Shown one piece after another: positions 23,605 through 63,100 of a stretch of DNA of 64,000 bases. The translations under genes and the position numbers were made by a program. The notes under the pieces are model-generated. The model was not told where the DNA came from. It made no database searches and worked only from the letters and a program-made list of their open reading frames with translations. The DNA comes from an uncultured virus (IMG/VR IMGVR_UViG_3300000115_000011) (Duplodnaviria > Heunggongvirae > Uroviricota > Caudoviricetes): IMG/VR virus record IMGVR_UViG_3300000115_000011, one strand, 5' to 3'. Each line of letters starts with the position of its first letter. Position 1 is the first letter of the stretch.

Positions 23605-23619
23605 TCCGGATCATCCGGA
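23605..23619. repeat. Palindrome TCCGGATCATCCGGA, copy 1
   Basis: Intergenic, ~100 bp upstream of the first early gene. Confidence 0.95.
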
Positions 23620-23715
23620 GTTAAAAGCATTTGGCAACGAGCCGCATAATCTCCAGTAAGGCATTATAAGTTATCAGCCGAGCAATCATGCAGAGCGATA
23701 CAAGGAATCAAGATT

Positions 23716-24360
23716 ATGACTAAGTTATTCAAGTTGACCACCAAGAACATCACCGACATCAAGAGCGCTATTGACACCAATGGCAAGTTGGAAACCGCCA
23801 TCGGCAACCACCGCGCAAATTTTTACGTCACTTTAACGGGCATGTTTCAAGCCTCGGGCGTAGAAATGGATGTCTTTAAGGCCGCCATTGCAACGGGTTT
23901 AAATGCCTACTTTGGACGCGCTGACCGCCAAACCGAGGCTCAGGTAAAAGCGAAGGCTAAGCCTATGCCGCAGGTAGTCATTGATTGGGCTGGACGCGTG
24001 CAACAGACCGTCACCCTTGGTATCAAGCCCGCGACCATCAAAACCATGAGTGAGGGCGAAATGAAGAAGGAAATCGCCCTAGTCAAGGCCGCCGCGAAAC
24101 AAGGCGTAACACGCGCCGCAATCGTCAAGGCCGCAGGTGGCGCGAAAGCACCGCTGAAGGCCGTAGAAAAAGCGATCAAGGCCGCCACGATCAAGGCCGA
24201 CCCCAGTGCAGAAAAGGAGCGCATCGCACTGGCAGAACTTGTGGGAGCGATCAGGTCGCACATGGCCAGCCTAGACCATGCCGGCCGCATGACTTACATG
24301 GCCAGCCTAGTGACCACTGCTAAGGCTAACCCAGCAGAGGCCGCAGCCGCGAACTTCTAA
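23716..24360 (+). CDS. First early gene; Ala/Lys-rich basic protein of unknown function
   Basis: AAGGA RBS; 214 aa; visibly GC-rich codons (GCC, AAG, ATC). Confidence 0.75.
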   Translation: MTKLFKLTTKNITDIKSAIDTNGKLETAIGNHRANFYVTLTGMFQASGVEMDVFKAAIATGLNAYFGRADRQTEAQVKAKAKPMPQVVIDWAGRVQQTVTLGIKPATIKTMSEGEMKKEIALVKAAAKQGVTRAAIVKAAGGAKAPLKAVEKAIKAATIKADPSAEKERIALAELVGAIRSHMASLDHAGRMTYMASLVTTAKANPAEAAAANF

Positions 24361-24468
24361 AGCCCCCAAGAAACAGCTCTCTTAATTGAGGGTTGTTTTG
24401 TTTAGGCGATTAATTCCCCTAGTCACCTAAACAAAACGACCGTAATTAAACCACTGGAGATTGACCCT

Positions 24469-24720
24469 ATGAAATTCATTAACACTAAAACCACCATCGC
24501 CACCATCGACCGCGAACTGGCCGCCTACAAAGAGGGCGCTCAAATCATGAATCATTTTTTGTTGATTGCAAGCGACCGCATCAAAGAGCAAAGCAAAACC
24601 ATTGCAGAGCTTGAGCGCGAGGTATCAGACCTGAAGCACTCTCTTGAGATGGTCTCAATCGATAGTCAATCGTCCCTAGACATTACAAAACGTGCTCTTG
24701 CTCTGGAGGTGGCGTCATGA
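24469..24720 (+). CDS. Hypothetical coiled-coil protein
   Basis: GGAG RBS; ATGA overlap with the next gene. Confidence 0.65.
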   Translation: MKFINTKTTIATIDRELAAYKEGAQIMNHFLLIASDRIKEQSKTIAELEREVSDLKHSLEMVSIDSQSSLDITKRALALEVAS

Positions 24721-25241
24721 TTTCTATTCGCAACCAGATGATGGCACTGCTTCCAGATATGAAGCCCATTTCTACTCCGGATCATCCGGTGCAGGGAACC
24801 CACTCCAAACCCAGAGGTCGTGCTTATGGCGACTTCTCAGACACCACCATTGACGGGTATAACCAAACCCGAATGGGGTATGAATTTGAGTCCTATTGCA
24901 TCCCAGAATGGGTGCTAGCAGGCCCATGGAAGCACCACAGGGTGCAGATAGTCAAAGCCTGCCCTGCCACATGGTCTAGAGTTAATCAGTTTGGCGACAA
25001 GGTATACAAGCAACGCGCTTGTACCTTCGGACAGAGTGCCCAGCACAGCCGGTTGGGTGATGATTATAAAGGCATGGAGCTGAGTAACTTATACGCATCC
25101 AAGTTATTAGTTCAGGATACATTCAAGGAGCTAATTAAGTTACTTCCCTCTCCAAAGGGTCAACGATTAGATCAAAAGTATAAGAAGAGTTTACAACGAG
25201 TCCACTTAGTGTGGGAACCGAAGCAAAAGGAGAAGTCATAA
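24717..25241 (+). CDS. Hypothetical protein
   Basis: GGAGG RBS; translationally coupled. Confidence 0.6.
   Translation: MISIRNQMMALLPDMKPISTPDHPVQGTHSKPRGRAYGDFSDTTIDGYNQTRMGYEFESYCIPEWVLAGPWKHHRVQIVKACPATWSRVNQFGDKVYKQRACTFGQSAQHSRLGDDYKGMELSNLYASKLLVQDTFKELIKLLPSPKGQRLDQKYKKSLQRVHLVWEPKQKEKS
24776..24790. repeat. Palindrome copy 2 (TCCGGATCATCCGGT), inside CDS
   Basis: Encodes part of TPDHPV in 24717..25241. Confidence 0.95.
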
Positions 25242-25456
25242 TGAGTGATTGTCAAGAGCGGGAAATAGATCAATCCATAAGGGCCGATGTGTATCAGGAG
25301 AACGGGTACAAGAATCGTACAGAGTATTTATCGTCATTGGCTTGGGAACATGAGGTCTCGATAGAGACGGTTCATCAGTACGCATATTTACTGGGGCCAT
25401 CAGAGGATTTTGATGGGCTGGTGGCGGTATTGATGGTGAAGAGGGGTGACGTATGA
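25241..25456 (+). CDS. Conserved small phage hypothetical protein
   Basis: Y.ENGY.NR.EYL..LA...LGPSEDFDGLV motif; ATG at 25241 after GGAG. Confidence 0.7.
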   Translation: MSDCQEREIDQSIRADVYQENGYKNRTEYLSSLAWEHEVSIETVHQYAYLLGPSEDFDGLVAVLMVKRGDV

Positions 25457-25650
25457 ATCAATATATGAAGTGGAACCATGGGTTCGTTAGCCATGCAATA
25501 GCTCAGTATGAGGAGGAGCAGCTGATTAACCTCAAGAGTATGGAGAGGTATAGGGGTGTGATTGAGGATCCTGATTACAGGTCTGCATCACCCACATTTA
25601 AAGAACGGGTGATATTGTCTGACCAAACATATTTGGAGTGGATTACTTGA
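25453..25650 (+). CDS. Hypothetical protein
   Basis: Coupled ATGA start. Confidence 0.55.
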   Translation: MNQYMKWNHGFVSHAIAQYEEEQLINLKSMERYRGVIEDPDYRSASPTFKERVILSDQTYLEWIT

Positions 25651-25670
25651 CACCCCAGGAATTACATTGA

Positions 25671-25703
25671 AAAGCCTAGCAGTTAATCTTGCTGGGTTTT
25701 TTT
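25671..25703 (+). terminator. Intrinsic terminator
   Basis: AAAGCCTAGCAG-loop-TTGCTGGGTTT followed by a T-run. Confidence 0.75.
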
Positions 25704-25931
25704 ATGTCTATTGATTTTGTGTGGGTCAAACGACAGGGCTTTGTGTGTGTTAGAGCTTTGTCGTTTGCTTATATCTGTATAGGACAGAATGGCACTTGCC
25801 GATTTTTGGGGGCCGGTGGATATAAAGTCTTCAGAAGGGGTAAATGGGGTGTTGGCGTAGTCGTGTAGCCAGTACCTATAGTACCGTGAATCGCCTTGAT
25901 AGTCAATGGCGGTGCGGGTTTAACTACTAAG

Positions 25932-25946
25932 TCCGGATCATCCGGA
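25932..25946. repeat. Palindrome copy 3, overlapping an RBS
   Basis: TCCGGATCATCCGGA-GGAG-AACAAC-ATG. Confidence 0.95.
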
Positions 25947-25956
25947 GGAGAACAAC

Positions 25957-26151
25957 ATGATAAAACAAGAATTGATTGACGAGGCATTGAGTCGGGTAAT
26001 TGTTGACGTATTTGTAGGTGACATCACCGCTATTCAGGAGTTACTTAGACTTACACCCCGAAAAATACTATTAGGTTTCCTAGATGAAGAGAGAGCGGCA
26101 GAACTTAAACTCCGTCTGGATAACCCATTCCCTACGGAGGACAAGTCATGA
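25957..26151 (+). CDS. Hypothetical protein
   Basis: GGAGGAG RBS; GD.TAI.ELL motif. Confidence 0.65.
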   Translation: MIKQELIDEALSRVIVDVFVGDITAIQELLRLTPRKILLGFLDEERAAELKLRLDNPFPTEDKS

Positions 26152-26303
26152 ACAGACAGACAAAAATGGAATTGAAAAGAGAGTTAGCGATACTCGGATG
26201 GAGCATCGTCAAGGCAATGTTCTTTTGCTTCTTCGTCCTCGCCCTATCATGGTCACTGGTAACAGTGGCTGTGACGTTCCAGATAATTCAGATAGGAGGT
26301 TAA
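26148..26303 (+). CDS. 51-aa predicted membrane peptide (not in ORF track)
   Basis: MNRQTKMELKRELAILGWSIVKAMFFCFFVLALSWSLVTVAVTFQIIQIGG; GGAGG RBS, ATGA overlap. Confidence 0.55.
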   Translation: MNRQTKMELKRELAILGWSIVKAMFFCFFVLALSWSLVTVAVTFQIIQIGG

Positions 26304-26305
26304 GT

Positions 26306-26527
26306 ATGTGTAATACATGCCCGACTAAATGTAATGCCGAAGTGGTGCAGTATGTACCGCTAGGCTATCACCACAAGGAAGTAATCTCTAAGTGTGGTAG
26401 CACTGGCCACACTGGAGAAGAACTTAGGTGTGATCGATGCGAGAACATCAAGCCTTGGTACATATGTGAGGGCTGCGGCTCTGACATCAGCGAATATGAC
26501 TGCCCTCGTGGCTGTGGAGAACAATAA
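26306..26527 (+). CDS. Cys-rich putative zinc-binding protein
   Basis: GGAGG RBS before ATG 26306; multiple CxxC/CxxxC motifs. Confidence 0.6.
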   Translation: MCNTCPTKCNAEVVQYVPLGYHHKEVISKCGSTGHTGEELRCDRCENIKPWYICEGCGSDISEYDCPRGCGEQ

Positions 26528-26928
26528 TGATTTCATATGCAGATAAGTACAGCCAAGTAATAGTATCTCAAACTCTAGAATCTGAGAGTGCAGAGTATGA
26601 GGCAGCAAAACGAAACCCATACGGAGAAATTAATCCGAACAAGTTTCTTCAGTCCATCATCAACTGGAAGACTAACATAAGTCATCTCGACTATATCCTC
26701 TGGGTATCTCCTATCAATGTAACCGAGGATGGAGTCGCCTATGAAATAGATTGGGGTACTCACATCCATTCGGTCGTATCTTCAAGTGAGAAATGCTTGG
26801 TTGAATATGTCGATGATGAATTGTTCAAGGTGACCGCACCTGTTGGGGGTGAAAGACGTTTCGCAATGCGAGGAGGGTTTATTAACAATTCCAACACTCT
26901 CGTACCAAGCTGGGGGTCACACTCATGA
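26527..26928 (+). CDS. Hypothetical protein
   Basis: Coupled TAATG start with GGAG RBS. Confidence 0.6.
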   Translation: MISYADKYSQVIVSQTLESESAEYEAAKRNPYGEINPNKFLQSIINWKTNISHLDYILWVSPINVTEDGVAYEIDWGTHIHSVVSSSEKCLVEYVDDELFKVTAPVGGERRFAMRGGFINNSNTLVPSWGSHS

Positions 26929-27518
26929 GGGAAGAAACGATCACTATCTATAACTACTCTGAGCTGTCGGATAAGGCTAAGGAAAATGCCTATGAAAACT
27001 TCGTGATGAATAATGAGCACCACTTTGCAGAGGAAGGTATGGATACCCTCATATCTTTTCTTAAATGGTCTGGCATAAGCATAGGTAGATACGAGATAGG
27101 TGCCTATCAATATAGCTATATCAGAACGGATATACCTGAAGATTGTCAGGAGGAAATACGAACCATGGAGGTCGAGTGTCGCCTACTAGGTCTTGATGAA
27201 CAGGATACAGAGGACAGACTCTTACAATCGTTTGACCAAATGCAGATAGATATAAATCATCTCTCACCAAATCACCCAGATGAGAGTCTAAATCACTGGG
27301 GCAGTGGGTGGTGCATGACTGACGATATCATTCACTACTGGGATACACACTTGAAAGAAAACCCTCTCGATAACATCGGTGCGCTTCATGCTGTGGTTGA
27401 TGGAGCACTATCTCAAATGGTAGCCGACTTGGAGCATCAAGATTCGAGGGAATACTTCGAGGAGGTTATGCAAGATTATCATCAGAATGAGTACCTAGAA
27501 GACGGAACCCTACACTAA
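26925..27518 (+). CDS. Acidic conserved hypothetical protein (Y..SELSD.AKE.A family)
   Basis: N-terminal TIY.YSELSDKAKENA and C-terminal EY.EDG motifs common in phage and plasmid early regions. Confidence 0.7.
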   Translation: MREETITIYNYSELSDKAKENAYENFVMNNEHHFAEEGMDTLISFLKWSGISIGRYEIGAYQYSYIRTDIPEDCQEEIRTMEVECRLLGLDEQDTEDRLLQSFDQMQIDINHLSPNHPDESLNHWGSGWCMTDDIIHYWDTHLKENPLDNIGALHAVVDGALSQMVADLEHQDSREYFEEVMQDYHQNEYLEDGTLH

Positions 27519-27519
27519 C

Positions 27520-27534
27520 TCCGGATCATCCGGT
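27520..27534. repeat. Palindrome copy 4, between stop codon and RBS
   Basis: TAAC-TCCGGATCATCCGGT-GGAG. Confidence 0.95.
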
Positions 27535-27546
27535 GGAGAAATCACT

Positions 27547-27747
27547 ATGGAAAACTTAAGACTAAGAAACGTACAGGTAGGTGGCATTTGCATGGCTGAC
27601 TACCCAGACTTCGTGGATGCGTATATCTCTTACGCAGAAGATTCTAATGGGAAAGCCTTGACTGATGAGCAGTTGGAGACCCTGACTAATGAGCATCAGG
27701 ATTTTGTGCAAGAGTGGGCGCACGATGAAATTATGGGGAGAGTGTAA
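27547..27747 (+). CDS. Small acidic conserved phage protein
   Basis: DYPDF.DAYI..A...G..LTDE.L motif. Confidence 0.7.
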   Translation: MENLRLRNVQVGGICMADYPDFVDAYISYAEDSNGKALTDEQLETLTNEHQDFVQEWAHDEIMGRV

Positions 27748-28073
27748 TGAAACTCTATGTGAACGAAAGCCGCACCCAATGGGCTGGTACTCAAGCGGAT
27801 GCCAAGAAAGAACTTGGTAAGTATGAGGCATTTGATGTGCCTGTGGATAAGTCTGGCTTGCTAGCGTTCCTCAATAAGGAGTCAGGATTTAACATAGATC
27901 CTGTTGAGGTTGAGCAGCAACCAGTGGTGACCAATCAACGTGACACACGCCCTCTTAATGACACTCTAGTGGGACGCTGTAACCTAGTTGAATTAAAGGA
28001 ACTGTCTACCATGATGAACGTACTTTTGAATCGTACATGGAACGACATGGATAAATTAACGGAGGACGTATGA
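27747..28073 (+). CDS. Hypothetical protein
   Basis: WAGTQADA...VPVDK.GL..FLN motif. Confidence 0.65.
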   Translation: MKLYVNESRTQWAGTQADAKKELGKYEAFDVPVDKSGLLAFLNKESGFNIDPVEVEQQPVVTNQRDTRPLNDTLVGRCNLVELKELSTMMNVLLNRTWNDMDKLTEDV

Positions 28074-28246
28074 AAACTTATACAGTTGTGTGGGAGGTAG
28101 AGTTAGATGCTGACAGTCACAGAGAAGCTGCTGAGGAAGCACGGAGTATGCAGTTAGATGCCTACTCTGAAGCTACGTTTTTCGATGTTACTTGTTTGGA
28201 TGCTAAAGGTAATGAAATTGAAATAGGAGTTGATTTAAATGGGTAA
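28070..28246 (+). CDS. 58-aa acidic protein (not in ORF track)
   Basis: MKTYTVVWEVELDADSHREAAEEARSMQLD...; GGAGG RBS; fills the gap exactly. Confidence 0.65.
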   Translation: MKTYTVVWEVELDADSHREAAEEARSMQLDAYSEATFFDVTCLDAKGNEIEIGVDLNG

Positions 28247-28577
28247 ATTAAGCAATCAGGAAGTAAGTAGCTACGTTAATAATCTTAAACCGTTCGAGAC
28301 CAATAGCGGTAGCATATTTTCAGATGGAGGTAGGGACAAAGGGTTATACGCTGTCTACTCCTACGGGTATCACTTCCCGATGTACGTCTACGACACTGCA
28401 TCTAAACAATGGTTCGGGAACCACGACAAATACAGCAACACCACCTCACGCCATCAGAATTGTGCCCAGCCTAGCGCCAAGATACATTGGATGGGAACCC
28501 GCGACATGAAGCTGCTCACTGCCGCCGGTTCCCTAGCTAGAAGGTGTGCCAATAGAATGAAAGGAGAAGCAGCATGA
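28239..28577 (+). CDS. Conserved phage hypothetical protein
   Basis: Y.VYSYG.HFP...W..N.DKYS.TTSRHQ motif. Confidence 0.7.
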   Translation: MGKLSNQEVSSYVNNLKPFETNSGSIFSDGGRDKGLYAVYSYGYHFPMYVYDTASKQWFGNHDKYSNTTSRHQNCAQPSAKIHWMGTRDMKLLTAAGSLARRCANRMKGEAA

Positions 28578-28765
28578 CATCTGATCAACTAAAACTTTTA
28601 GCGGCTGTTAACAATGCAGAGTTAGTGCTTAGAAAAACACGATCAGTCATAGAGGATGCAGAGGCGTCTATTAAATTTTGTAAATTAACTGAGAAGGTTT
28701 ACCTCAGAAAACTAAGGGCGTCTAAGGCAGCTTTAAGTAATAACAGGAAGGGAGCTTCAGTATGA
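28574..28765 (+). CDS. Hypothetical basic protein
   Basis: Coupled start, GGAG RBS. Confidence 0.55.
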   Translation: MTSDQLKLLAAVNNAELVLRKTRSVIEDAEASIKFCKLTEKVYLRKLRASKAALSNNRKGASV

Positions 28766-29082
28766 TCAAAGTAACCCAGCGTATGTTAAACAAGTCGATC
28801 ATCGATGCTAACAAAGCGGTGACGTCATTTGTTAATGACAATCTGCCCCAAGGGTATGAGGGTCTAACAGATAAGATCACCTACCCTGCCCTAATAGGAC
28901 GTCCTGATGAATGGACTGATGGCTGGATAGAGTCTGAGCTAAGGCTTTATAAACGGATACGAGGTGACAAACTTTTGTCAATCAAAAACTTAGGCAAGAT
29001 AGCTGATGTTGGTGACGTCTTGACCTTTGATTCAACTGATGGCGTCAGTGTTTTGATAACTGTAACCAAGGGGGATGTATGA
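28762..29082 (+). CDS. Putative stand-alone B3/EcoRII-N-like DNA-binding domain
   Basis: T..ML.KSIIDA...V..F...LY....GD......L...A..GD.L pattern, recalled from N-terminal accessory domains of restriction enzymes; unverified. Confidence 0.4.
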   Translation: MIKVTQRMLNKSIIDANKAVTSFVNDNLPQGYEGLTDKITYPALIGRPDEWTDGWIESELRLYKRIRGDKLLSIKNLGKIADVGDVLTFDSTDGVSVLITVTKGDV

Positions 29083-29480
29083 GTAAATTATATATCGTTT
29101 TAGACAGTGAACACCGCATGTGCGATGTAGGCTTTAACGAAGGCGGGTGCAGCGTGTGGAGTACATACGAGGATGCTTTGCAGTCAGCCCATACAGAACA
29201 TGCAAGACCCTATGGCCTAACGAATCAAGAAGGACTAGATGAAGATTGTCCCTATTATGATTATCAAATTCTAATTGTTGAAAAGATAGGTCACTCAGTC
29301 AACCAATGTGAAGTTTACCTGCCAAAAAAAGTAGACTTTGATTTTGTTATGGACACCTTTGTATCTGTTCGAGCGCCCGAAGGTACTGACCCTGACGATC
29401 TTATTAAAGAGGCCAAGATTAGGTTTCAAGACGTAGCAAAGAATACTAACTTTGATGTGGTTTTAAAGGAGGATGTATGA
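29079..29480 (+). CDS. Hypothetical acidic protein
   Basis: GGGGGATGTATG junction start. Confidence 0.6.
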   Translation: MSKLYIVLDSEHRMCDVGFNEGGCSVWSTYEDALQSAHTEHARPYGLTNQEGLDEDCPYYDYQILIVEKIGHSVNQCEVYLPKKVDFDFVMDTFVSVRAPEGTDPDDLIKEAKIRFQDVAKNTNFDVVLKEDV

Positions 29481-29683
29481 GTAAAAGATTCTGTACTTAC
29501 ATGAGTGATTCCAATGACTTAACTGATCGTCCGATTAGATTTATAGTGGAAGGCCAAAGCCTACCTGACGATTGGTCTGAGTATGTATGGCAGTACGCCA
29601 AGGATGGGGACGAAGCAGTTAGCCAACATGTGGAAAAGCATGATCTCTGGCAAAAAGATCGGGTAGAGAAACACACCTACTAG
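29477..29683 (+). CDS. Hypothetical protein
   Basis: GGAGGATGTATG junction start. Confidence 0.6.
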   Translation: MSKRFCTYMSDSNDLTDRPIRFIVEGQSLPDDWSEYVWQYAKDGDEAVSQHVEKHDLWQKDRVEKHTY

Positions 29684-29691
29684 GAGGATGT

Positions 29692-29862
29692 ATGAAAAAA
29701 TATAACGTTTACATTACTTATCCAGTTAAACATAGCTATGAAGTAGAAGCAGAAAATGAAGATGAAGCTAAACAAATGGCTTGTGAAGGCGAAGGCTATA
29801 TCACAACAGAATATGTGGAGTACAAAACTGAGATTGAAATAACCGAAGGAGGAGGCGTATGA
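29692..29862 (+). CDS. 56-aa acidic protein, DpnD/PcfM-like pattern (not in ORF track)
   Basis: MKKYNVYITYPVKHSYEVEAENEDEAKQMA...; GGAGGATGTATG start. Confidence 0.65.
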   Translation: MKKYNVYITYPVKHSYEVEAENEDEAKQMACEGEGYITTEYVEYKTEIEITEGGGV

Positions 29863-30065
29863 GTAAAGCTGAATCTATATATGAATGGTTCCAAGATCAC
29901 TTCGATACCTTCGAGTGCTATCCCATGGATTGGATTGATTACGCTGACACTGACTTCACTCACACTGATGCAGGTTATGAAGAAGTAGGACGGCTATATA
30001 ATTGGGACGAATGTTGGGCCATATTGAACGAGCATTATCCAAATGTTAAGTGGAGGATGAACTAA
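29859..30065 (+). CDS. Small acidic aromatic-rich protein
   Basis: GGAGGCGTATG junction start. Confidence 0.6.
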   Translation: MSKAESIYEWFQDHFDTFECYPMDWIDYADTDFTHTDAGYEEVGRLYNWDECWAILNEHYPNVKWRMN

Positions 30066-30224
30066 ATGTCTAGTAAAGGTCACTGGTTTCCTTGCGGGAA
30101 CATAAACATGAAAGGACGTAAGACACAGAAAGCTCCTTGTGGGTGCTGTAGTGAAATACAGAACCAAAAAGACAAGCTCCTTATAAAAATACATAGAAAA
30201 GAAGCTAAGGAGACTTATGACTAA
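30066..30224 (+). CDS. 52-aa basic Cys-containing protein (not in ORF track)
   Basis: MSSKGHWFPCGNINMKGRKTQKAPCGCCSEIQNQKDK...; fills the gap. Confidence 0.45.
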   Translation: MSSKGHWFPCGNINMKGRKTQKAPCGCCSEIQNQKDKLLIKIHRKEAKETYD

Positions 30225-30241
30225 CCAATAACGGAGGACGT

Positions 30242-30550
30242 ATGGACTATAAGAACAAACCAAAGGTAGCAGTATGTCAGGAGTGTGATTCAGAAGATCT
30301 TTCTGCCACAGGGTACTTGTTATGGGATAAAGATAAAGGCGACTGGCTTTCTAATCCTAACGATGAGTTGCATGGTGTTTGGTGTTTCGACTGTGATGGC
30401 GAATGTATCGTAGACTACATAACAGAAGAGGAACTGAAGTTACGTCAGGTAAAAGGAAGGCTCCTCAGTTCTAAGGGTGTCTATAATATAGATCTATACA
30501 AAGGAATGGATGCTGGTGCTATCTATAAAAAACTTCAGGGGGATGTATGA
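30242..30550 (+). CDS. Zinc-ribbon protein, paralog A
   Basis: AVCQECDS...WD...WC.DCDGEC.VDY.TEEELK.RQVK.RL. Confidence 0.7.
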   Translation: MDYKNKPKVAVCQECDSEDLSATGYLLWDKDKGDWLSNPNDELHGVWCFDCDGECIVDYITEEELKLRQVKGRLLSSKGVYNIDLYKGMDAGAIYKKLQGDV

Positions 30551-30774: not shown

Positions 30775-30930
30775 CTGTATAGCACATACAGGCACTTGCC
30801 GATTTCTCGGGGCCGGTACACATAAACAAACTTAGCGGGTAATACAGAGACATAGGTGTTGAAAACCTATACCTTATTGTGCCCTAAATTTATATTAAAG
30901 TCAATCATATCAGTGACTTAACTTATCTAC

Positions 30931-30945
30931 TCCGGATCATCCGGC
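30931..30945. repeat. Palindrome copy 5 (TCCGGATCATCCGGC)
   Basis: Intergenic, 25 bp before ATG 30971. Confidence 0.95.
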
Positions 30946-30970
30946 GGAGAACTAACTAGGAGTATCCATC

Positions 30971-31414: not shown

Positions 31415-31487
31415 GAATTATTCCTAGATAAAACTGTCTGGGAATGTGTTTAAATCATCATAGATTATATACCTAGGAGGAGGAATC

Positions 31488-32038: not shown

Positions 32039-32047
32039 GGAGATAGT

Positions 32048-32272: not shown

Positions 32273-32294
32273 TGTAGGATAATTCTATACAACT

Positions 32295-32650: not shown

Positions 32651-32946
32651 TGGATAAACTAATTAATAATGTCATCCAGTGGGCAGATGACAAGGGGATC
32701 CTAGAAAAGTCTACCCCTTTGCACCAACACGTTAAGACTCAAGAAGAGGTGAATGAGTTGCTTGAGGCAATCGTTAACTCTGATCGTGAGGAAACCATAG
32801 ATGCCATTGGTGACATCATCGTCACCCTTATCATACAAGCAGAGCTGAATGGATTGTCCGTCAAGGACTGTCTCCAAAGTGCATATGATGTGATCAAAGG
32901 GCGTCAAGGGTCTATGGTCAATGGCTTATTCGTAAAGGATTCATGA
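32650..32946 (+). CDS. MazG-like NTP pyrophosphohydrolase
   Basis: WA...GI......Q..K..EEV.EL...DAIGD..VTL...CL..AY.VIK.R.G.MVNG.FVK. Confidence 0.9.
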   Translation: MDKLINNVIQWADDKGILEKSTPLHQHVKTQEEVNELLEAIVNSDREETIDAIGDIIVTLIIQAELNGLSVKDCLQSAYDVIKGRQGSMVNGLFVKDS

Positions 32947-33206
32947 GCTTAATATTTAACCCAAAGGTTACGTTACGTCCTAAAAGGACTATGAAGGAAA
33001 AAACCTTGGGTGATTTATCTCATGACGAATGCAATCGTCTAGTAGAGCTTCGTGCAATAGCTGTCCCATACTATGAGATCGAGTCCCTAATGGGTAGATC
33101 ATACAAGATATGGCAGTCAGCACCTGAGAAGTATGGGCTGACAGTACGCATTGCAAATAAGCGTGCTGAACTAACACAAGCAGCCCTTAATCCTGACGCT
33201 GCTTAG
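32943..33206 (+). CDS. Hypothetical protein (possible HTH)
   Basis: L.ELR......Y.EI...MGRS pattern. Confidence 0.55.
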   Translation: MSLIFNPKVTLRPKRTMKEKTLGDLSHDECNRLVELRAIAVPYYEIESLMGRSYKIWQSAPEKYGLTVRIANKRAELTQAALNPDAA

Positions 33207-33207: not shown

Positions 33208-33222
33208 TCCGGATGATCCGGA
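33208..33222. repeat. Palindrome copy 6, inverted (TCCGGATGATCCGGA)
   Basis: Directly after a stop codon and before a terminator hairpin at ~33227-33251. Confidence 0.95.
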
Positions 33223-33262
33223 CTATAGCCTCGTTTGATCGGGGCTTTTTTATATAAAATTT

Positions 33263-46893: not shown

Positions 46894-47541
46894 ATGGAAA
46901 CATCTGAAACTATTGGCAAGATAAGTCTTGCTCTCTCACAGGCGCAAGCTGAAATGATTAACGTCTATAAAGGCTCGGCTGCTTACAACTACAACTACGC
47001 TGATCTCGGTGTGATTCTGGACATGCTGCGCCAGACACTACCCAAGTATGAGATCGCTCTTATTCAAACGCCCAGTAACGATGGAGCGAATGCGTGTGTT
47101 ACGACCATGCTCTCGCACAGTTCAGGGGAGTGGATAAAAGATTCGGTCTCTTGTCAGATAGAGATGGCCAAGGGCAACTCAGCAATACAGTGTCTGGGTA
47201 GCTCAATAACCTATTTGCGTAGGTACTCATGCAGTGCGATAGCGGGACTAACCCAGACCGATTCCGATGCCTCTATCCGTACTCCGGATGATCCGGAGGG
47301 GGTGGAAGCTCAGCCTATAGAACTGGTTCGTATGGCGTCAAAAGTAGAGATCAAATCTGTGACAGACATGGCAGCGAAGGCTGATGTAGACATCGCAAAC
47401 GTAACCAAGAGTCTTAATCTTAAATCCATCAGCGACATGACTTCCGAACAAGCTGAGCGTGCATGTCGGAAGCTCCACAAAACTATACTCGCAGCTGAGA
47501 AGGTTGTGCCTGCTGAAGATGAGTTGGCGGTGGCGTCATGA
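46894..47541 (+). CDS. erf: ERF-family single-strand annealing protein
   Basis: AL..AQ......K.....Y.YADL..I, L.H.SGEW, Q..GS.ITY.RRY...AI.G...D.DA; GGAG RBS supports ATG 46894. Confidence 0.9.
   Translation: METSETIGKISLALSQAQAEMINVYKGSAAYNYNYADLGVILDMLRQTLPKYEIALIQTPSNDGANACVTTMLSHSSGEWIKDSVSCQIEMAKGNSAIQCLGSSITYLRRYSCSAIAGLTQTDSDASIRTPDDPEGVEAQPIELVRMASKVEIKSVTDMAAKADVDIANVTKSLNLKSISDMTSEQAERACRKLHKTILAAEKVVPAEDELAVAS
47283..47297. repeat. Palindrome copy 7, inverted, inside erf linker
   Basis: TCCGGATGATCCGGA encodes part of TPDDPE. Confidence 0.95.
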
Positions 47542-53856: not shown

Positions 53857-53863
53857 TACTCTC

Positions 53864-54158: not shown

Positions 54159-57100
54159 TTATTCTTTACCGAACGTATACTCATTTATTAAATACAAATG
54201 CTTCTTGGGTAAGACCACACCTTCAATCGCTGACGCTTTCATGATGACCTTGGACTTCAGGCTGGCAAGAAGTGTCTTCGATGTGATCAACTCTGACTGA
54301 ACGAGATACTTCATAGCTGGATCTTTAATATCATTAATGCGCTCCATAATATAATTGTTCCACCTAGTCACAGCCGCCAATGCGTCCTGTACATCTGACT
54401 GATCTCCACCTGAAATTGCGGTATAAACATCACCAAGCACGTTTCGTCTGACCGCTTTCTGTTGTTCAGATTTATTCTTCCCAGCAAATGCCCGACTGTA
54501 TGTAGAGCTTACGACTTCTGGAGTAAATCCTAGGGCTTGAATAACTATATCACTCGTGTCGAGTGAATCGATAACCTCCAAATCATTGCGTGTCTTGACA
54601 CCATTCTTTGAGTAATCAACAGCTTTGTAAGCGTCCCGTACAACCTTGGGTAATGCAGACTTCAGATTATTAGTGGGGTTTCCTTCATACACATCCTGAG
54701 CAAAGTTGAAAGTAGATCCACCGATGCCACCGAACACTGGGCCAGCCACTGATAATAAAAGTTCCTTGTAATATTCTTTGCCTGAAGACATCGGACGATC
54801 TGGCATCATGATTAACAGGTTCGTGTTCTGTCCTGTTCTTGATGCTATGTCTACGCCTAACGCATTACCGAGTCCTTTGCTGAGTAGAGCACTCATGAAT
54901 TGCTGCTCATCATCATCGAACATGCCTCTAACAAGGTCGTCCAACCATTGAGTAAACTCAACTTCACTTGAGACAACCTCCTCTTCATCATCAGCAAATA
55001 AGTTGTACGCTACGCCGCCCATCCACACAGCTACGGCTATTGGTAGTACACCTGTTGCCCCAGCTGCTAACATCTGGAATGTGACAAGACCGGCAAGGGC
55101 TTTCATTGCTTCTCTACGTTTCTCTGGAGACAAAGACTTGTCTCTACCTAAAGCCTCACGAGCGAGCTGAGAGTACATGTAGATAACGTGCTGACCATAG
55201 ATTTTAAAGGTCGTCATCGACTTGATAATGTTGTTCTCTCGCATAGCCCTTGGACGGTTCTCAGATTCATACAAGAACTGAGTTTCTCCAATCAACTCAC
55301 GCACCTCGTCATAAATCTTTAGCTCATTCTCGCTCATCTCTTCAGAGCTTTTGAACGTAGATCCTTTGAACAGCTCAGGGTGCTTGTCTTTGATCAGTCT
55401 GTATGTGGCTAATCCAGTGACCTCTCGGTTACTCATCTCAGCCCCGTGGAACATATAAGCACCTGTGCGCATTAGCTTCTGCATTTTCGTGCCGAATACG
55501 CTAGGCGTTCTCTGATCAGAGTGAGCTTCTTCAGTGATCGAGCCAACTCGAGTGATGTCTATATCTCCTCGGTCTATTAACACCTTGATAAAGTTCTGCT
55601 CATCAGCTGTGACATTCTTATTGCCATCTCGCGCGAACGACTTGTACGCATCACGCAAAGACAACTCACTCTTGCCAAGATGCCAGTCAGTCATTGTCTT
55701 GAGGAACACTGCTGATGTTTTAGCTAGGCCATACCGCGCACCGACAATCGGAATTGCTATCGTTGGAACCTGAGTCAAGTTGACAAACGCTGCGGCAGGA
55801 GACCAACCAAGGTAATGGAAGAAAGCCAACCGTCCTGCGTTCGATGCCCATGCTGCGCCTGTTGGATTCATAGTCAACTCGAATCTCTTCGTCATCTCAG
55901 CATGTGTTGCTGAAGCAATATCAGCATACTGTTGCGTAACTTGCGAAGCCTCACCCGTGGCAAACTTGCGATTCTCTAGACCGATGTCGTTCAATTCAGA
56001 TTGGATTCGATCAGCATACTTAATCTTAGAGATCTGCTGTGCCGACTGAAGCATCATGTTCTGAACTGACCTTCTCATGTCAGATGACGCACCCTTGGTG
56101 CCAAGCCGCTGACGTCTACGCTGCATGATGGAGCTAGAAGGTAACGTGTTCAGCATCAAATTGTTTATATCAGTCTTGAGCTGTTCAGTTGATGCTCGGA
56201 TAGACGATCTAGCATTTTCATCCATCATATCATCACGAAGAACATCATCCCGATTCTCATCAAGCGCAGTAAATAGATTGTCTCTGAACGAGAAGAGGTC
56301 ACCTGACTGAGCTGTCTTGCCCATGTCAGCCATGTACGTCATGCGTGCATTATCTTCACCCCACTTGGACTTGTGCCACTTCAACGCACGCTCAGCTTCT
56401 GTGCGGCTCTCGAACTGCTCTCGAACAAACTCCCTCTTGCCATTAATTTCTGCAAAAGCAATGACAACATGATTGCCAAATCTAGATAGAGGGAAGTATG
56501 GGCCGCGCTTAATTAACTCACCCATCCGATTCTTCAAAGCTTTCTTAGCCGACTCACGATGAACAGGGTTTTCAATCTGCCTATCAATACGAGCAAGTAA
56601 CTCACTCTGCTCCATCTCATACTGCTCTCGTAACATAACTCGGGTGTCATCATAAACGAGCTTGGCATTAGCGGTGAGCTTGTTCCACTCCCTTCTCAAT
56701 CGGGCATGCTCGGACTGCATAAAGGCTAAGCTTTCTTCTAAATTAGAAATGTTTGCCATGTCCACTTTAGTCTTCTTGGGTTTTGCCTTTAGCTTATCAA
56801 GCCTATTCTGGTCAAGACGAACAAACTCATGAACTTTATTCGCCATTGATTCGTCAGGGTGTATGCCAGCAATCGTAGAATCACGCATGAGACTAGCCAA
56901 AGAGTTAGCTTCCTTGGTACTTAACTTGTCCCAAATCTTCTCCTCTTTTTCAAACCCATGAAGCGCTCGTTCTTTATCAACTCTGAACTCACCTAGTAAA
57001 TTGTTAATGGTCTTTAACGGGTTACCATCTTTCCAGTCAAACGCCGCCTTATAGGTGCGGAAGATCTGAGTATTAGTTAACCAATACTGGAGGAAGTTAC

Positions 57101-60100
57101 GGTTCTTGTTCTGATTAATAACCTTAGAAGCCGAATCAACTGTTGATTTACGGAAGTTCTCAGCTGCTAAGCCACCAAGAATCTTACCTACATTTTCTTC
57201 CGAGTCAGCAAATACCTCCATCTGCTTAGGAGCATCGAGCTTGCTCACTTTGGAATAGAGAATCTGACCCGCAGTTTGTGGTGCTGTGTTTGCATTAGCA
57301 TTGTCAGTGTAAACGTGGCGCTTGGCATCTAATACTAAGTCTCTTAAATTACCATTCGATGCAATGTAATTGTTAGAGAACGTGCGCTTCATCCACATAC
57401 GGATAGCGTCATACACACGAGTCATCAATGAACGAGACTCCAATCCTTCAGCCATCACTGCGATGATCTCCTCAGCTTCCTGCTCACGGCTAAGCTGACC
57501 TTCCCTATTCATAACTACTTCAGCCGCAGCAACCACTTCAGGATCGCCATTCGCTTTCATGTCCTGCACTTCGTCTAGGATTGAGTTGAACTCATCTCCT
57601 AACATAGATTGAATGCCATAGTGGCCAACAACCTCATGACTAAAGACAGTACGCGCCTCTGACTTAGAGTGAATGTTGTCAGCAACGAGGTACGAAGTCA
57701 TGCTGTTAGGAATGAATAGACCTCTTGCTGTTGGGTCGATGTCTGCGTTAAGCCCTGCGGTTGGAATATCAGAAACAGATTGAACCACTTCAACTGAGTG
57801 CCCAAGCTTACTCATGTTTGCTAATACAGAATTACCTACCCACTTCTGAACATCTTTAACAGACTTACTTGAAAGACCTCTAGCCTTTTCACTGACTGAC
57901 TGACGAGAGTAGACCACACCTCTGTCGTTGAGGTCAGTAGCTATTGCCTTAGCATGCGCTGTCTGCCAGACGTAGAAGAACGTTTCATTATTCCTGCTCT
58001 TAGGTGTAATGAAAGCACTTTCATTTCCCTTTTTGTCTAAGGGAAGTATCCTTCTTAGAGTGGCCTCAATAGACGCCTTATTAGCAGGAGTGGCTGTAAG
58101 GCTTAAATACTTTTTACCCTTGGCAGTCTCAGCTGTAATAGGATTAGCGCCATGCCGCTTCAGCTCTTCTATGTAGGTGTCACCAGCCTCTGGTTTAATA
58201 GCTGGCTTGACCTCAACTGAACCGAGGTCGCCTCCTCTGGCCTTAACTGCTTCTATTTGCTGTGGCGTCAACCCACCTGAACCATCACCTTCAAGGTCAT
58301 AAACAGTTCCATCGTCATCCGCTACTCTGTTACCATCTCCGTCTTTAGTCCCTTCCCACTCAAACGAATCAAAGATACTTGGCTCACCGCTCGAACTCAA
58401 CAGTGTGTTAAGTTTGCGTTTAACCACTAATGATTTGTGCTCATCACCTATGCCACCTTCCAGATTAACCACATGAACGACTGAAGCAGACTGGGTATTC
58501 TTTCTTGAGACTCGACCAATTAACTGAACCACTTTATCACCAGACCAGTTCTTGGTGACCATGATAAGTGAACGAGGAGTATCTCCTACAACGTCATCCA
58601 AGTTGATTCCAGTACCACCAGAAGCAGCAGTTATTAAAGCAACGGGAGCCTTTCCTTCTTGGAATTCTGCTACGTTTTCTTTACGCTCATCTGTGGTGTC
58701 TCCCGTAAGCTCCGTATAGTTTATTCCCTCAGAATCCAAGCGCTCTTTCATCAAGCCGATGAACCCCATAATTTTCTTATCATCTAAGCCTTTAATAGTT
58801 AAATCGTTACTGACAGTCTCCGCTGCTACAATAACTTGTTTACCGTTAGCAAGATCTTCTTTAAGCTGTTCTACTGTTGCGTCTAGCTTGAGGTGCTCTT
58901 CCCACCTTACGAACTCATTGATCCTTTGGCCCTTCATCGTACTAGGATTGCCTTTAGCAGCCATCTCTGACGACCACCATCTATCCATCTCACTTTGCTC
59001 GATCCTTGATTCTTCTGTCATCTGAACATTAATGTCATTGGTTGTGCCAAAGAAAGGGTAGTACCGCTTGAGCATACGTCCTGACTTAATGACAAAATCT
59101 CTCATCTCAGCTACTTTTTCCAAAGCCCTCTTAGGAGAAACACCCTTCTTTAGCACCACCTCTTTTGGCCCTTCTATATATAGGCCAGATTTAGTCTTCA
59201 CCTTCTTACCAGTGGCCAGCTTATGACCTAACCGATCAAGCGCTTTCTCATATGTCTCACCTGTTATTTGCGCCCACATGTTAGCACCAGATGAAGCACG
59301 ATCCATTGGTGTAGCTGTAACGTAAACTACTTTTTCTTTCCTTAGCCCACGACTTGCCTTAGCTTGAATGGTGTCGTAGTTCTTTAGGTTATGAGCCTCA
59401 TCAAATAAAACCATACCCCAGTCTTGGTCGAACTCAGAATTTACTGCGTTCCCTTTCTTGCCGTCCTTAAAACTATTGTATGTTCCCGTCTTAAACTGGT
59501 TCATGTCGATGCCCATAATCGCAGCATCTTCAGCAAAGTTCTTTTTGAGAATCTCGGGCTTCTCAGAAATTATTAGAACCTTCTTACCTGTAGACTTTTT
59601 GTATTGATCAGCTATGGCTAGAATTTGTCGGGTCTTACCAAAGCCCGTACCATCCGCTAACAAGAACCCTTTGTAGTTTTTTTCCATCATAGATGACAAC
59701 GCTAGATCAACACCCATACGTTGCCCTGCATCTAACGAATCAGCATAGACAGATGAGTGATCATTTATAGTTGCACGATCTGGAATAATATCAGGTCTTA
59801 CTTCGACAGCTGGCAGTCTACCCTTAGCAAGATTTGTCTCTGTTGCTATTCTTTGTGTAGGTATTCCTACCAAGGTTCTAGATGGATCTCCCAAGTTTCT
59901 AGATGGCTTGGACTCAGCTACGATGACCTTCCTTTGTTCATCTAATTGTTCTATTTGAACAGCTTCTATGGCCTCAGCTTGAGCAGCTTGAGCAGCTTCA
60001 GCAGCCACACGGATCTTAGTTTGAGCAGCTACGTTAGCCAGTAATGCTTCCATAGAAGCATCGAGGCCATCTTCTGATGCTGGCACATTGAACTTGATGT

Positions 60101-63100
60101 CATCAATCTTTCCATTTACTTGGAGAGAAGTTTCCACATCAGCCTCAGTAAACTGCTTACCGAAACTCTGCAACGTCCTGCGAACATCTGCCTTGGTGTA
60201 GTGCTCATAGAAGCCCACCTTACGGAGTGCCTTCATGACGTATGAAACAATCGCATCCCAAGCTTTACCAAACTTAGATTGATCTGCCTCTTCAGCTACT
60301 CGTGCAAAAACTTCTTCAGCAATAGAAGACTCTATGCTCTCGTCAGTAGCTCCCTGATTTTTCCAACCATCAATGTAAGGCTTATATCTGGTACGAACAT
60401 TATCAAAAATGAGAGTCATTTCTTTGTTCTGACCTTCTGCCTTAGACACCCTGTTTAATATATCCATCTTCTCTTCAAGAGTAGTAAAGACAGACAAGCC
60501 ATAGTGGGCAAGGATTTCGTGGCGCAGAACAGACTCAAGTTCAGCCGTGTTATTAATTCCAGCAGCGTTTAGCGTCACTACTTTATTCTTTAGGCTACCG
60601 ACAGCTGCACCGTCAGGCACAGGTGTGTTGATTATGTTGTACTTAATATCAGGTATGCCGTTGTACTTAGCTTCAAAATTATTTATGACTGATTGCACAG
60701 ACGCAACAGACATACCATTCGTATTTCTTAGCTGACTTCTAGATACAAATTTCCGCCCAAGAATATCTGCGACATCAAATATGTCATCTATATCAGAATT
60801 AGTAATACCACTGGCGGGTTTAGATTTTTTGACTACAACGCCTAATTCAACTAACGCCTTTTCTATCTTTGGGATAAGCGCCTTCGCGGCTTTGCGATCC
60901 GCAGCATTAAGCGTAGTATCTTTTGAATTAGACTTCGCATCTTTTAAACCTAATTGCAGCTGATCTATCTGATCTTGATCTGCGGTTGCGTCAGCAGGGT
61001 CTATCTCAATCTCTGGATCAGTGTTATCCGCATAGCCATTCAAGTCTCCCCAGTCTTGTTCATCATCAATCGTGAGATCTTCATCAGCAGTAAGGGTTGT
61101 TTCACCCAAAAATTCTTTAATAGGATCTGTGTTGCTAACAGTAAATGTTTCAGATTCAGCTTCAGCTTCAGCTTCAGTTTCATCGACTGTCTTTGCTTTT
61201 GTGGGTAGAGGCGGAAGGTCTGGGTCTGAGGCTATGACCTCTAACTGCTGCATTATATCTTCAGTAGTTAGACCATCATCAGCCTTAGTCTTTTTACCCT
61301 GTCTTACAGGTGCTCTACCAGCTTCCTCAATGGCAGCGTCTTCCTCCTGTTCTTCTTGTATTGCAGCGTCACTTCTTAAATCGTTTTCACGTTCCAACTT
61401 AACCTTCGCCTGAAACAAAGCTTTGGTTGGATTAATAACGTGGACAGCTCCATCAACCTCACCATCACGGAAGTAAAGAGCTTGGTTCTTAAGCTTCCCC
61501 CGTACTGATTGTGAGTTAGCCTTGGAAACTTTAATACCAACAAGCAGCCCCGTATCTCCATCACTTAATACGTCTTCCTTTCCTTTTGCTTTCTTATGGC
61601 TACTTAAGAATTCATTGATAGCCGATGTGTCCCCCATCAAAGTCACAGACCCATCATCATTCTCTATCGAATCAAACTTGCTTACTGAATTGAACATGAT
61701 GGATACTGCTTCAAGCCTATCCTTACCCTCTTCTAGCTCGAACTTACCTTTCTGTTCCCCACTTGCAAGCAATGCGTTAACAGTGTTGATGCGTAGGTTT
61801 GCAAATTCAGTTGCGGCTATTAAGGTGTCTGATTTTCCATCAGAATCAACATCAAGTAGTTCGCTTATGTTTTCCTCAGTGAGAGCCTCCATGCTATCCC
61901 CTTTGATGTAATCAAATAGGGGATCACTCTTGCGTGTAAGCATAAAGAGTTGGGGTTGGTTAGGGTATTTCTCGCTAGGAGTTTGGGCTAGGACGTAAGG
62001 TAATCCGCTATTCTCAATATTCTCTTGAAGGTTATTTCTAGGCTCAGTAACAGCAACGTCTGTAGAAGCAGCTTCCTCGGACTTACCTACTGTGTCCATC
62101 CTGCTAACAGAAGTGACTACAAAGAAGTCATCAGATACCTGTGATTTCTGAACGTCATAAGCACTGTTAGATCCGATTGTTTTTAATGCGTTCTCAGCAG
62201 ACGTCTTATTGTCGTATGCCATCGGTTCATCTGTGCGCATTTTCTTTGAAGGGATCAAAGCGTCAAGAACAAATGACTTCTGCTCTCCAAACAAACCAAG
62301 GGTAGCTGTAGGACGATAGAGTCCCAATCCCTTTCGTTCAAGATCCTTAGCCTCTTCCACAGCCGCATCCTGCGTTGCAAAGACTTGAGCATAAACATCA
62401 TCAGTGCCCTTCTCCCCCACATAAAGAGCAAGCTTTAAACCATCACCCCTTACTACAAACTGGAGAACCCTATCATCGTTAACTAGATCTGATGGATCAT
62501 TGTTTGATGTTGATCCTACATCCTTTAAATCGAACGCTACTTCCGCAGCTGCTTTAGCCACAACCTCAGTTGTATCTTGCACCGGATCATCCGGACTTGA
62601 ATCAACAACTTCATTTGTACTAACTGGGTCTTCAACTTCGTTAACATCTGTATTACCTTCAAATAAATCATTAGCTTGTGGGTTTTGTACTGGGTCTGCC
62701 TGAGTGGTTAAGCTTACGCCACCATCGAGGCTGAACCCGTCAACCTCTCGGTCAACTTGGTCTTTAGTTTCACCTGCATCAAGGTCTCGATCTGCTTTGG
62801 TAGCAAGGTCTTCTTCGGTTTGAGTGGATAGTTCAAGGGCTGGCGCAGCTACTTCATCATCTGTAGTTTCTGCTACCACTGGCGCAGCTACTTCATCATC
62901 TGTAGTTTCTGCTACTACTGGTTCAGCTACTTCATCATCTGTAGTTTCTGCTACTACTGGCGTAGCTACTTCATTACCTGTGAGTTCTGCAACGAGTGCA
63001 GGGTTGGTGTGCCAGTTTTGCCATTCGCGCTTCTGGTCTTTTAGTTCTTCAATCCTAGCTCTAACCGCTTCAGGATCTTTTACATTAACCCCTTCAGCCT

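Follow-up and report, generated by a model that had tools for sequence, protein, structure and literature searches.

What reads a short palindrome that recurs along one arm of a phage genome, and to what effect? The source phage is a temperate podophage, and an exact scan of the window (the whole stretch of 64,000 nucleotides analyzed here) found eight copies of CCGGAT(C/G)ATCCGG, with 13-mer starts at 23606, 24777, 25933, 27521, 30932, 33209, 47284, and 62582. The initial annotation had reported the same eight copies by the starts of the surrounding 15-mers (23605 and so on), one position before each 13-mer. The copies are real: 0.00024 copies per 64 kb are expected under a third-order Markov model, and none of 100 shuffles reached eight (mean 0.00). 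The window scan found no copy with one mismatch and two matches with two mismatches (0.57 expected). Six copies have C at the center and two have G; four carry the full TCCGGAT(C/G)ATCCGGA, and the remaining four match it at 14 of 15 positions. There was no Rfam match and no tRNA in the window. The sites and the elements beside them are as follows:

23605..23619, unstranded: site 1, a perfect 15-mer, 97 bp upstream of the first early gene
23639..23667, plus strand: putative sigma70 promoter of the first early gene, placed from conserved alignment columns
23716..24360, plus strand: first early gene, 214 aa, candidate palindrome reader
24776..24790, unstranded: site 2, within ORF 24717-25241, encoding PDHP
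25669..25702, plus strand: intrinsic terminator closing the first unit of the arm
25878..25906, minus strand: leftward promoter of sigma70 type, conserved (TTGACT-N17-TACTAT), lying 25 bp from site 3
25932..25946, unstranded: site 3, abutting the RBS of ORF 25957, at a gene-exchange junction
27520..27534, unstranded: site 4, flanked by the ORF 26925-27518 stop and the ORF 27547 RBS
30876..30904, minus strand: another leftward promoter (TTGACT-N17-CACAAT), lying 26 bp from site 5
30931..30945, unstranded: site 5, preceding ORF 30971
32943..33206, plus strand: small HTH-like gene immediately preceding site 6, found in all three site types (A, B, and C, below)
33208..33222, unstranded: site 6, 5 bp ahead of an intrinsic terminator
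33227..33252, plus strand: intrinsic terminator paired with site 6
47283..47297, unstranded: site 7, in the ERF gene, encoding PDDP
62581..62595, unstranded: site 8, in a linker-encoding part of the gene for the giant polyvalent protein

As first described, three copies lie in coding sequence (ORF 24717, the ERF gene, and the giant protein) and five between genes, and 1-23.6 kb holds none. Calling the array genome-wide overstated its spread: the first 9.6 kb of the early arm carries six of the eight copies. This arm, 17 kb long, adjoins terS; sites crowd its first 10 kb, and its final 7 kb is without one. The density gradient from the terS end itself held up and was also found in type B and type C relatives. 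The record G001, almost identical to the window (99.99% over 52.7 kb), shares all eight copies and, in a further 13.7 kb, has no additional one. Judged by synteny with the relative G002, about 2.4 kb of the genome is absent from both the window and G001, and since G002 has a site of its own type in that segment, a ninth copy is possible. Among viral contigs, the exact pattern occurs in at least 119 stretches, with a single match in 79 of the 80 listed; one of the 80 (L070) sits on a contig of a close relative. All five whole records checked have exactly one copy, which suggests that those stretches are mostly chance. A scan of genome contigs gave one weak partial match (L225), and a search of cultured phages found region 25700-25960 absent from them. 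Two other genomes show no such array: G005 (TerL 59%, complete), and G006, but the latter record stops before the early arm. In the article texts searched, the palindrome variants turned up in one paper, on an unrelated subject, and we found no related description.

Relatives carry sites at orthologous places, with shared flanks and switched sequence, in three types. Type A, that of the window, is TCCGGAT(C/G)ATCCGGA; type B is TCCGG(C/T)T(C/G)A(A/G)CCGGA, differing from A at two inner positions only; type C is TCGGGTT(C/G)AACCCGA. Twelve of 13 records have one site type only, and the hybrid contig L219 bears both A and B sites. Across 47 distinct contexts, the center is always C or G, flanked by invariant T/A, and either orientation occurs (C in 35 and G in 12, read in arm orientation). 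The independent sequence switches seen number two (A/B and AB/C), and type B amounts to a single genome (L223, L127, and G002 are apparently one phage). Conservation of the copies inside genes, proposed in the initial annotation as a check, gave a split result. The copy at 24777 is conserved with switched sequence, its type B equivalent being a type B site that encodes PVEP in place of PDHP, whereas the ERF and giant-gene copies are missing from the only type B genome that covers them (G002 is without site 7 and has a partial match at site 8). The PDDP allele occurs in three of 17 aligned ERF rows. A lineage-specific sequence switch, made also by a copy inside a gene despite the amino-acid change, points to a double-stranded DNA site and a phage-encoded dimer. 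From such comparisons, we consider it highly probable that the palindrome is a DNA site for a phage-encoded dimer, in line with the original suggestion of a DNA-level site for a dimer. Methylation sensitivity, also suggested there, does not emerge as a conserved feature, with type B losing GATC and type C losing both GATC and CCGG. CCGG is strongly avoided by type C phages, whose site is without it.

We propose that the palindrome is a dispersed double-stranded DNA operator read by a phage homodimer, likely the product of the first early gene (23716), acting as repressor or road-block of the arm; taken whole, this reading has in our estimate about an even chance. Of its parts, 23716 as the reader is somewhat favored, and we lean to a similar degree towards a net effect that is repressive rather than activating or structural. 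Host RNA polymerase would transcribe the first gene soon after entry, and the 23716 dimer would bind site 1 beside its own promoter. It would also occupy the sites at gene junctions, inside genes, and ahead of the terminator, where it may damp or road-block transcription across the first 10 kb of the arm. The outcome would be a short early pulse and an arm silent in the lysogen, a lineage-specific control separate from the cI/cro switch. Against an arm operator stand the site-free final 7 kb of the arm and the fact that sites 7 and 8 are not kept in G002.

The placement of sites at promoters, at stop-site-RBS junctions, and ahead of a terminator favors a transcriptional role. In types A, B, and C, site 1 lies 17-23 bp upstream of a weak putative -35 (by eye, in the alignment); the first-gene promoter has this weak -35 and a -10 of CATTAT at 23662-23667, which reads TATGAT or TATCAT in type C. 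The position of site 3 has orthologous type B and C sites in relatives, and the unit of site 6 and its terminator recurs in types B and C. Within the window, one site of eight adjoins a terminator and three of eight lie in coding sequence. A sigma70 scan was by itself uninformative (29 found, 37 expected). The same site and a phage-encoded dimer might instead activate the weak sigma70 promoters of the arm and of two putative leftward antisense transcripts (from 25871 and 30869), which we think unlikely. Sites 3 and 5 and their orthologues keep a near-fixed 25-27 bp to a conserved leftward TTGACT, and the -35 downstream of site 1 is poor, both of which would suit activation; such site-promoter spacings are class I activator distances, as for CRP. 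Centers placed roughly -60 to -70 relative to weak promoters would suit an activator as well, a point against the repressive reading. However, the site 1 distance varies between types, so that helical phase is lost; no promoter is evident near sites 2, 4, 7, or 8, and many sites abut an RBS.

As candidate reader, the 23716 protein (214 aa, pI 9.9) is predicted to be all-helical. It is 92-94% identical in three of three type A records and 47% identical to type B, the products of the two genes downstream being 72-83% identical to type B. Profile comparison makes the first gene of type C phages (8948-9703 in G003) probably a distant homologue (HHalign probability 61%, E 8e-5, 143 columns). The predicted homodimer scored 0.71, against 0.00 for the best of three controls, with the homodimer mark reached by 20 of 30 solved homo-pairs and one of 23 single chains; contacts agreed between runs at 84% or more, at pLDDT of at least 88. 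First proteins have pI 9.4-10.0 across type A and B rows, and those of type C are not basic (pI 5.5-8.3). Two type C subgroups have first genes 52-55% identical, yet one common site. A-versus-B divergence is spread over the whole 23716 protein and is not loop-focused; loop 67-84, its most variable, is not named in the predicted interface. Counting against 23716 as reader, L219 tolerates a B site, and the first gene is fast-evolving anyway; since A and B differ at two inner positions only, one protein may read both. An alignment profile of 23716 had no Pfam, PHROG, or PDB sequence match, and in a search of cultured phages the first early protein was absent.

The parS-like loading put forward in the initial annotation did not stand as the main reading, as no ParA and no CTPase-bearing reader was found among the 86 window ORFs scanned. 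Structural loading sites would coat the first-entering DNA to protect it, take it up, or condense it, read by the 23716 dimer or by a virion-delivered ParB-like domain, a reading to which we give a low probability. The gradient from the terS end, retained in types A, B, and C, agrees with it, as do sites 7 and 8, distant from early promoters, and a site architecture that matches KorB's OB (PMC13768133). Two fold searches each gave the KorB DNA-binding domain (1r71_A) as a weak match (Z 4.6, rmsd 4.5, 99 aligned; Z 4.2, rmsd 5.0, 101 aligned), but at ranks 31 and 23, within noise; Foldseek with the 23716 model returned nothing at E below 0.001. No ParB N-terminal CTPase motif or domain was found in 23716, and no ParA or stand-alone ParB among the 86 window ORFs scanned, a set of larger ORFs, with about 16 kb of the genome lying beyond the window. 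The giant protein (3231 aa within the window) matches the LPD39 and SNF2 helicase families. Between types A and B, its ParB-like domain differs at two residues of a possible HTH, which would fit loading. Against this, the domain keeps 87% identity between the two types, resembles the DdrB-like ParB family (by motif and context, with no profile match), whose members are predicted to be DNases of no specificity that lack ParA (PMC5512222), and occurs in five of five fetched unrelated phage records without such an array. The first-gene profile had no match in ten records with the ParB-like domain, in a search without a positive control. The integrase looks intact in the phage genome, so plasmid partition would not be needed.

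A dispersed operator with a different phage reader, chiefly the HTH-like 32943 protein, or else the 49970/50115 regulators or the cI-like protein, seems to us rather improbable. The 32943 product was called HTH-like by eye and has no Pfam match. In type A its gene immediately precedes site 6, and in type C it overlaps the corresponding site; the protein is 29% identical to its type C counterpart, and the 50115 and cI-like proteins are 53-54% identical in a comparison of A and B only. The first 71 residues of 32943 are identical in A and B, which speaks against it, although Cluster A repressors with identical HTH can have distinct stoperators (PMC6550527). Apart from 23716, the readers first suggested (the ParB-like domain of the giant protein, CI, Cro, and the 28762 protein) follow site type poorly. 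We rejected the 28762 protein, 90% identical to type B but 58% to the type A record L221. CI and Cro were likewise rejected, with recognition helices nearly unchanged between A and B and no site at the cro-cI switch (no palindrome in 45564-46171, between cro and the cI-like gene).

It is very unlikely that the repeats are mainly recombination cassettes, or RNA hairpins for mRNA processing or protection before the RBS, homogenized by short-patch recombination without a dedicated DNA reader. Gene gain, loss, and reordering do break at sites (L219 at 13140, the L223 gene order), the joints 25923-26526 and 30944-31415 fall at sites, and ORF 30971 is missing directly after site 5 in L221 and in contigs from two of four runs. 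Such breaks at repeats, with variable early genes exchanged at repeated elements, recall the PeSLs of T4-like phages, which are promoter-terminator cassettes (PMC4122927); there the unit is a composite of terminator and promoter, whereas here it is a 15-19 bp dyad found also inside genes. Shuffling is in any case a by-product expected from any repeat, and switching inside genes costs amino-acid changes. As RNA, the 15-mer has a folding energy of -7.4 kcal/mol; its inner mismatches in arm orientation are of G-U type in five cases and A-C type in three (six and two when the late-operon copy is taken in the direction of its own operon). But a 3-nt loop would not need an invariant complementary T/A at a C/G center in both orientations, and site 1 sits upstream of the putative first promoter. 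In phage N4, hairpin promoters are used by the virion RNA polymerase; a promoter of that kind was rejected here, with no RNA polymerase match in the giant protein's 3231 window residues (its N-terminal ~950 aa fall outside the window and its family scan). A host regulator's site or host repeat seems to us extremely improbable: A and B phages exchange DNA by recombination and their integrases are 87% identical, yet they have different sites, and hybrid L219 implies that A and B share a host.

A dispersed operator read by a phage dimer has partial parallels. The OB operators of KorB in the IncP-1 plasmid RK2 are 13-bp palindromes with a G/C center, about a dozen over ~60 kb, a few bases to more than 1 kb from promoters (PMC13768133, PMC11790492). 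Shared with that system, as described there, are the odd palindrome with a G/C center in several copies, the site positions kept between relatives, and a dimeric helical reader (predicted here). In contrast, OB sequence is conserved between IncP-alpha and IncP-beta while the phage sites switch and crowd one genome arm, and KorB has a ParB CTPase domain and the ParA partner IncC, neither of which was found for 23716. Cluster A mycobacteriophages and Streptomyces phage R4 have operators and stoperators that are also many short sites in a temperate phage, most off promoters; they are syntenic, with a consensus that diverges with the reader between lineages, as we infer here (PMC6550527, PMC10276819). 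A stoperator is an asymmetric 13-mer that points along transcription and binds the phage's only immunity repressor, unlike our palindrome, which occurs in either orientation in a phage with a separate, site-free lambdoid cI/cro switch (PMC6550527, PMC10276819). Nor does 23716 belong to any known family, and no homology to the L5 gp71-type repressor was found. Unlike lambdoid CI/Cro operators, no sites cluster between cI and cro. In phiC31, conserved inverted repeats are bound by repressor C, and P1 has dispersed C1 operators; both resemble the present array in having dispersed sites over early regions of a temperate phage, those of phiC31 being inverted repeats as well. The sole link to their repressors is a weak Phage_Repressor_c lead for 23716 (0.78 in Atlas, within the chance range), with no Pfam match.

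A further, distinctly speculative possibility is that 23716 represents an undescribed family of KorB-like dimers that lack the CTPase, coating the first-entering 10 kb at lineage-specific sites and so marking self. It might protect DNA or time uptake and exclude co-infecting relatives of a different site type, adding to cI/cro a further, independent layer of immunity, with switching steered by host restriction. Returning to the operator reading, the array offers a compact example of joint change in a candidate protein and its DNA site, with three natural variants at the same positions, and the small candidate reader of no known family has natural loop-swap alleles, type A proteins that bear a type B-like loop (P0005, P0007, P0009, and P0014). 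The array also accounts for gene exchange within the early arm. If confirmed, 23716 and its relatives would define a family of phage regulators, new and dimeric, that bind DNA, and a lambdoid temperate phage could control its early accessory arm by a second circuit.

The palindrome CCGGAT(C/G)ATCCGG is present in eight exact copies in the window (sites 1–8, the extended 15-mers starting at 23605, 24776, 25932, 27520, 30931, 33208, 47283 and 62581); at least eight copies arose in 0 of 100 shuffles, and a third-order Markov model predicts 0.00024 copies per 64 kb. A scan of the window for exact and one-mismatch copies returned these eight and none with one mismatch, bearing out the number reported in the initial annotation along with its division into three sites in coding sequence and five between genes. 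Six of the eight lie within the first 9.6 kb of the early arm, a 17-kb plus-strand region between terS and Q (23716–40272) holding mostly unknown small genes. The nearest record, G001, matches window 11277–64000 at 99.99% and carries no additional copy in its extra 13.7 kb. We conclude that the array is genuine and that selection acts on it as a DNA site specific to the phage.

Scans of the 86 window ORFs identified a temperate podophage encoding TerS, TerL, portal, SU10-type adaptors, tail fibres, a lambda-type integrase, ERF, YqaJ, SSB, an O-like initiator, a primase-helicase, Q, a cro/cI-like pair and a giant LPD39/SNF2 polyvalent protein. The closest cultured TerL is 36% identical, and the public datasets that contain such sequence are labelled as marine and freshwater metagenomes. 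The integrase, together with a SutA-like domain, points to a gammaproteobacterial host. The SutA RNA-polymerase-binding domain (Pfam E 5e-10) lies in a small protein (50829–51059), possibly a host transcription modulator. CCWGG is nearly absent from the window (1 observed, 74 expected), with 0/90, 1/23 and 1/53 (observed/expected) in the related records G002, G003 and G004, a scarcity that suggests the host has a system of the EcoRII or Dcm type. Upstream of terS (22336–22731) lie lineage-specific direct and inverted repeats (CCTGTTCGCGTGCTGGACAGG-type, four copies; a 46-nt repeat, three copies), possibly a packaging or origin region; G002 carries other repeats there.

We then compared relatives. 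Scanning with TerL retained 80 loci (21 at 77–99%), and five records searched whole held no copy of the window palindrome at up to one mismatch. Counting palindromes de novo revealed TCGGGTT(C/G)AACCCGA (type C) in G003 and G004 (TerL 79%), and in G002 (TerL 91%) TCCGG(C/T)T(C/G)A(A/G)CCGGA (type B) occupies the position of site 6; the window form is TCCGGAT(C/G)ATCCGGA (type A). Scanning metagenomes with an alignment of the first early gene (23716–24360, plus strand, 214 aa) gave five loci, including L223, the early arm of a type B phage.

Site counts at up to one mismatch in 13 records
Window: 8 A
L219: 4 A and 1 B
L220: 2 A
L221: 5 A
L223: 6 B, with two further degenerate sites by eye
G002: 3 B
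G003: 8 C
G004: 7 C
L129: 3 C
L133: 3 C
L135: 3 C
L138: 7 C
L139: 4 C

Shared flanks in alignments confirm the orthology of sites 1 and 3 across types A, B and C, and relatives retain the density gradient running from site 1. L223, L127 and G002 are apparently the same phage, and about four variants make up the type C records, so the data amount to two independent switches. CCGG is strongly avoided in type C (G003, 5 against 26 expected; G004, 10 against 54), whose site variant lacks it, and is kept in types A and B (56/84 and 51/82); restriction pressure may drive the site switch. G005, a more distant complete relative, has four copies of the non-palindromic repeat AACCCTTTCGATA in place of the array. 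A trio at 35605–38926 (a MoxR-type AAA ATPase, an unknown 287-aa protein and a DUF2201 metallopeptidase/vWA protein) is kept in all three types.

Of the 44 genes compared, the first early gene encodes the best candidate reader of the site: its identity is 92–94% in 3/3 type A records and 47% against type B. The two genes downstream of it reach 72% and 83% against type B. Small genes at 25453 and 30547 show a similar A/B contrast, and tblastn found neither in the fragmentary type C records. The type C arm begins with a probable remote homologue of the first gene (HHalign 61%, E 8e-5). Few family members were found (16 and 17 matches) and none in a cultured phage, and sequence searches of Pfam, PHROG and PDB gave no match. 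AlphaFold models the protein as all-helical (pLDDT 86); the predicted homodimer scores 0.71 (best control 0.00), with contacts agreeing at ≥84% and pLDDT ≥88; the homodimer mark is attained by 20/30 solved homo-pairs and 1/23 single chains. The predicted interface comprises both chain ends and does not name the variable loop 67–84, which occurs in two swapped alleles, one resembling type B. Among homologues the loop-helix segment 67–96 is swapped as a block, and four (P0005, P0007, P0009 and P0014) are type A proteins with a type B-like loop. Fold searches gave no clear match; the KorB DNA-binding domain turned up in them within noise (Z 4.6 and 4.2, 99–101/114 residues). Counting against this protein as reader are fast evolution within type C without site change, divergence spread along the chain, and type C proteins that are not basic.

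Site positions relative to expression signals
Site 1 (23605): upstream of the first gene's weak, putative −35 by 17–23 bp, measured by eye on the alignment
Sites 3 and 5 (25932, 30931): 25–27 bp from a leftward TTGACT-N17 promoter
Sites 3, 4 and 5 (25932, 27520, 30931): directly ahead of an RBS

The leftward −35 is invariant in 9/9 aligned regions, several from close kin. With sites so near promoters, a role in activation is conceivable, if unlikely; a terminator follows site 6 in types A, B and C, and in G002 a second site-plus-terminator unit ends the tail operon. An inverted repeat with 31-bp arms (24382–24450), kept in type B, adjoins the end of the first early gene as a possible terminator or processing hairpin. 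A 57-nt element is duplicated on the minus strand (25770–25871 and 30770–30869, 82% alike), each copy lying downstream of one of the conserved leftward promoters, and type C phages have a counterpart; the elements, lacking Rfam and cultured matches, are candidate antisense small RNAs of ~100–200 nt with C-rich 5' parts.

The phiC31 and P1 operators are further comparison systems. KorB binds OB, TTTAGC(G/C)GCTAAA, at twelve sites spread across ~60 kb, some close to promoters and others distant (PMC13768133, PMC11790492). The array would work like KorB-OB and like stoperator networks (PMC6550527, PMC10276819); gene shuffling at the sites, as a by-product, recalls PeSLs (PMC4122927). Because the candidate reader lacks a CTPase domain, the sites lack asymmetry and there is no homology, we do not class the array with any of these. 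The parS-like reading of the initial annotation, or structural coating, is a minority option and an improbable one. A literature search for the motif variants, with supplements outside its scope, returned one unrelated paper only.

That another phage protein reads the sites is unlikely. The other candidates agree less well with the site types: the 28762 protein shows 90% identity to B and 58% to an A record; the recognition helices of Cro and the cI-like protein are nearly unchanged; the first 71 residues of the 32943 protein are identical in A and B, though distinct stoperators can accompany identical HTHs (PMC6550527); and the giant protein's ParB-like domain is 87% identical to B, with two A/B changes in a possible HTH. 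The giant protein (window 54159–64000; G001 42883–55416; 4177 aa in G001, 4641 aa in G002) combines ParB-like, SNF2 helicase and LPD39 parts. Its ParB-like module is common to otherwise unrelated phages at 45–69%, and 0/5 such records examined (of 17 found) had such an array. By motif and context it resembles the DdrB-like ParB domain, a predicted non-specific DNase without ParA (PMC5512222). The cro to cI-like interval holds no site; beside cro, intergenic DNA of the window (45564–45782) and of G002 contains TTTCG-N6-(C/A)GAAA inverted repeats, spotted by eye, which are probably the genuine operators of CI and Cro.

A recombination or RNA element is very unlikely. Gene exchange breakpoints do fall at sites: in L219 a left flank of type A runs into a site and gene of type B, in L223 the genes between sites are reordered, and joints lie at 25923 and 30944 in contigs. 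Across 47 distinct contexts, C occupies the centre in 35 and G in 12, the T and A beside it are invariant, and inner mismatches are five of G-U and three of A-C type; a duplex-DNA dyad accounts for the C/G centre and invariant T/A better than a loop does, a hairpin role being conceivable. The expected conservation of in-gene copies holds for site 2, kept with a switched sequence that alters PDHP to PVEP, and fails for the ERF and giant-gene copies, whose absence from G002 counts against a general constraint. With five substitutions inside the ERF 15-mer between window and G002, and the PDDP allele in 3/17 aligned rows, the ERF copy looks like a lineage-specific gain. Reading by a host regulator is scarcely credible.

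In P22, packaging starts near terS and proceeds towards the portal; if it does so here, the arm would enter first. With the first early protein as reader, host polymerase would most likely transcribe its gene upon entry, and the resulting dimer would bind the sites, limiting its own promoter and damping or blocking transcription across the first 10 kb. Early accessory genes would then be expressed as a pulse and kept silent in the lysogen, under a control that is specific to the lineage and works alongside cI/cro.
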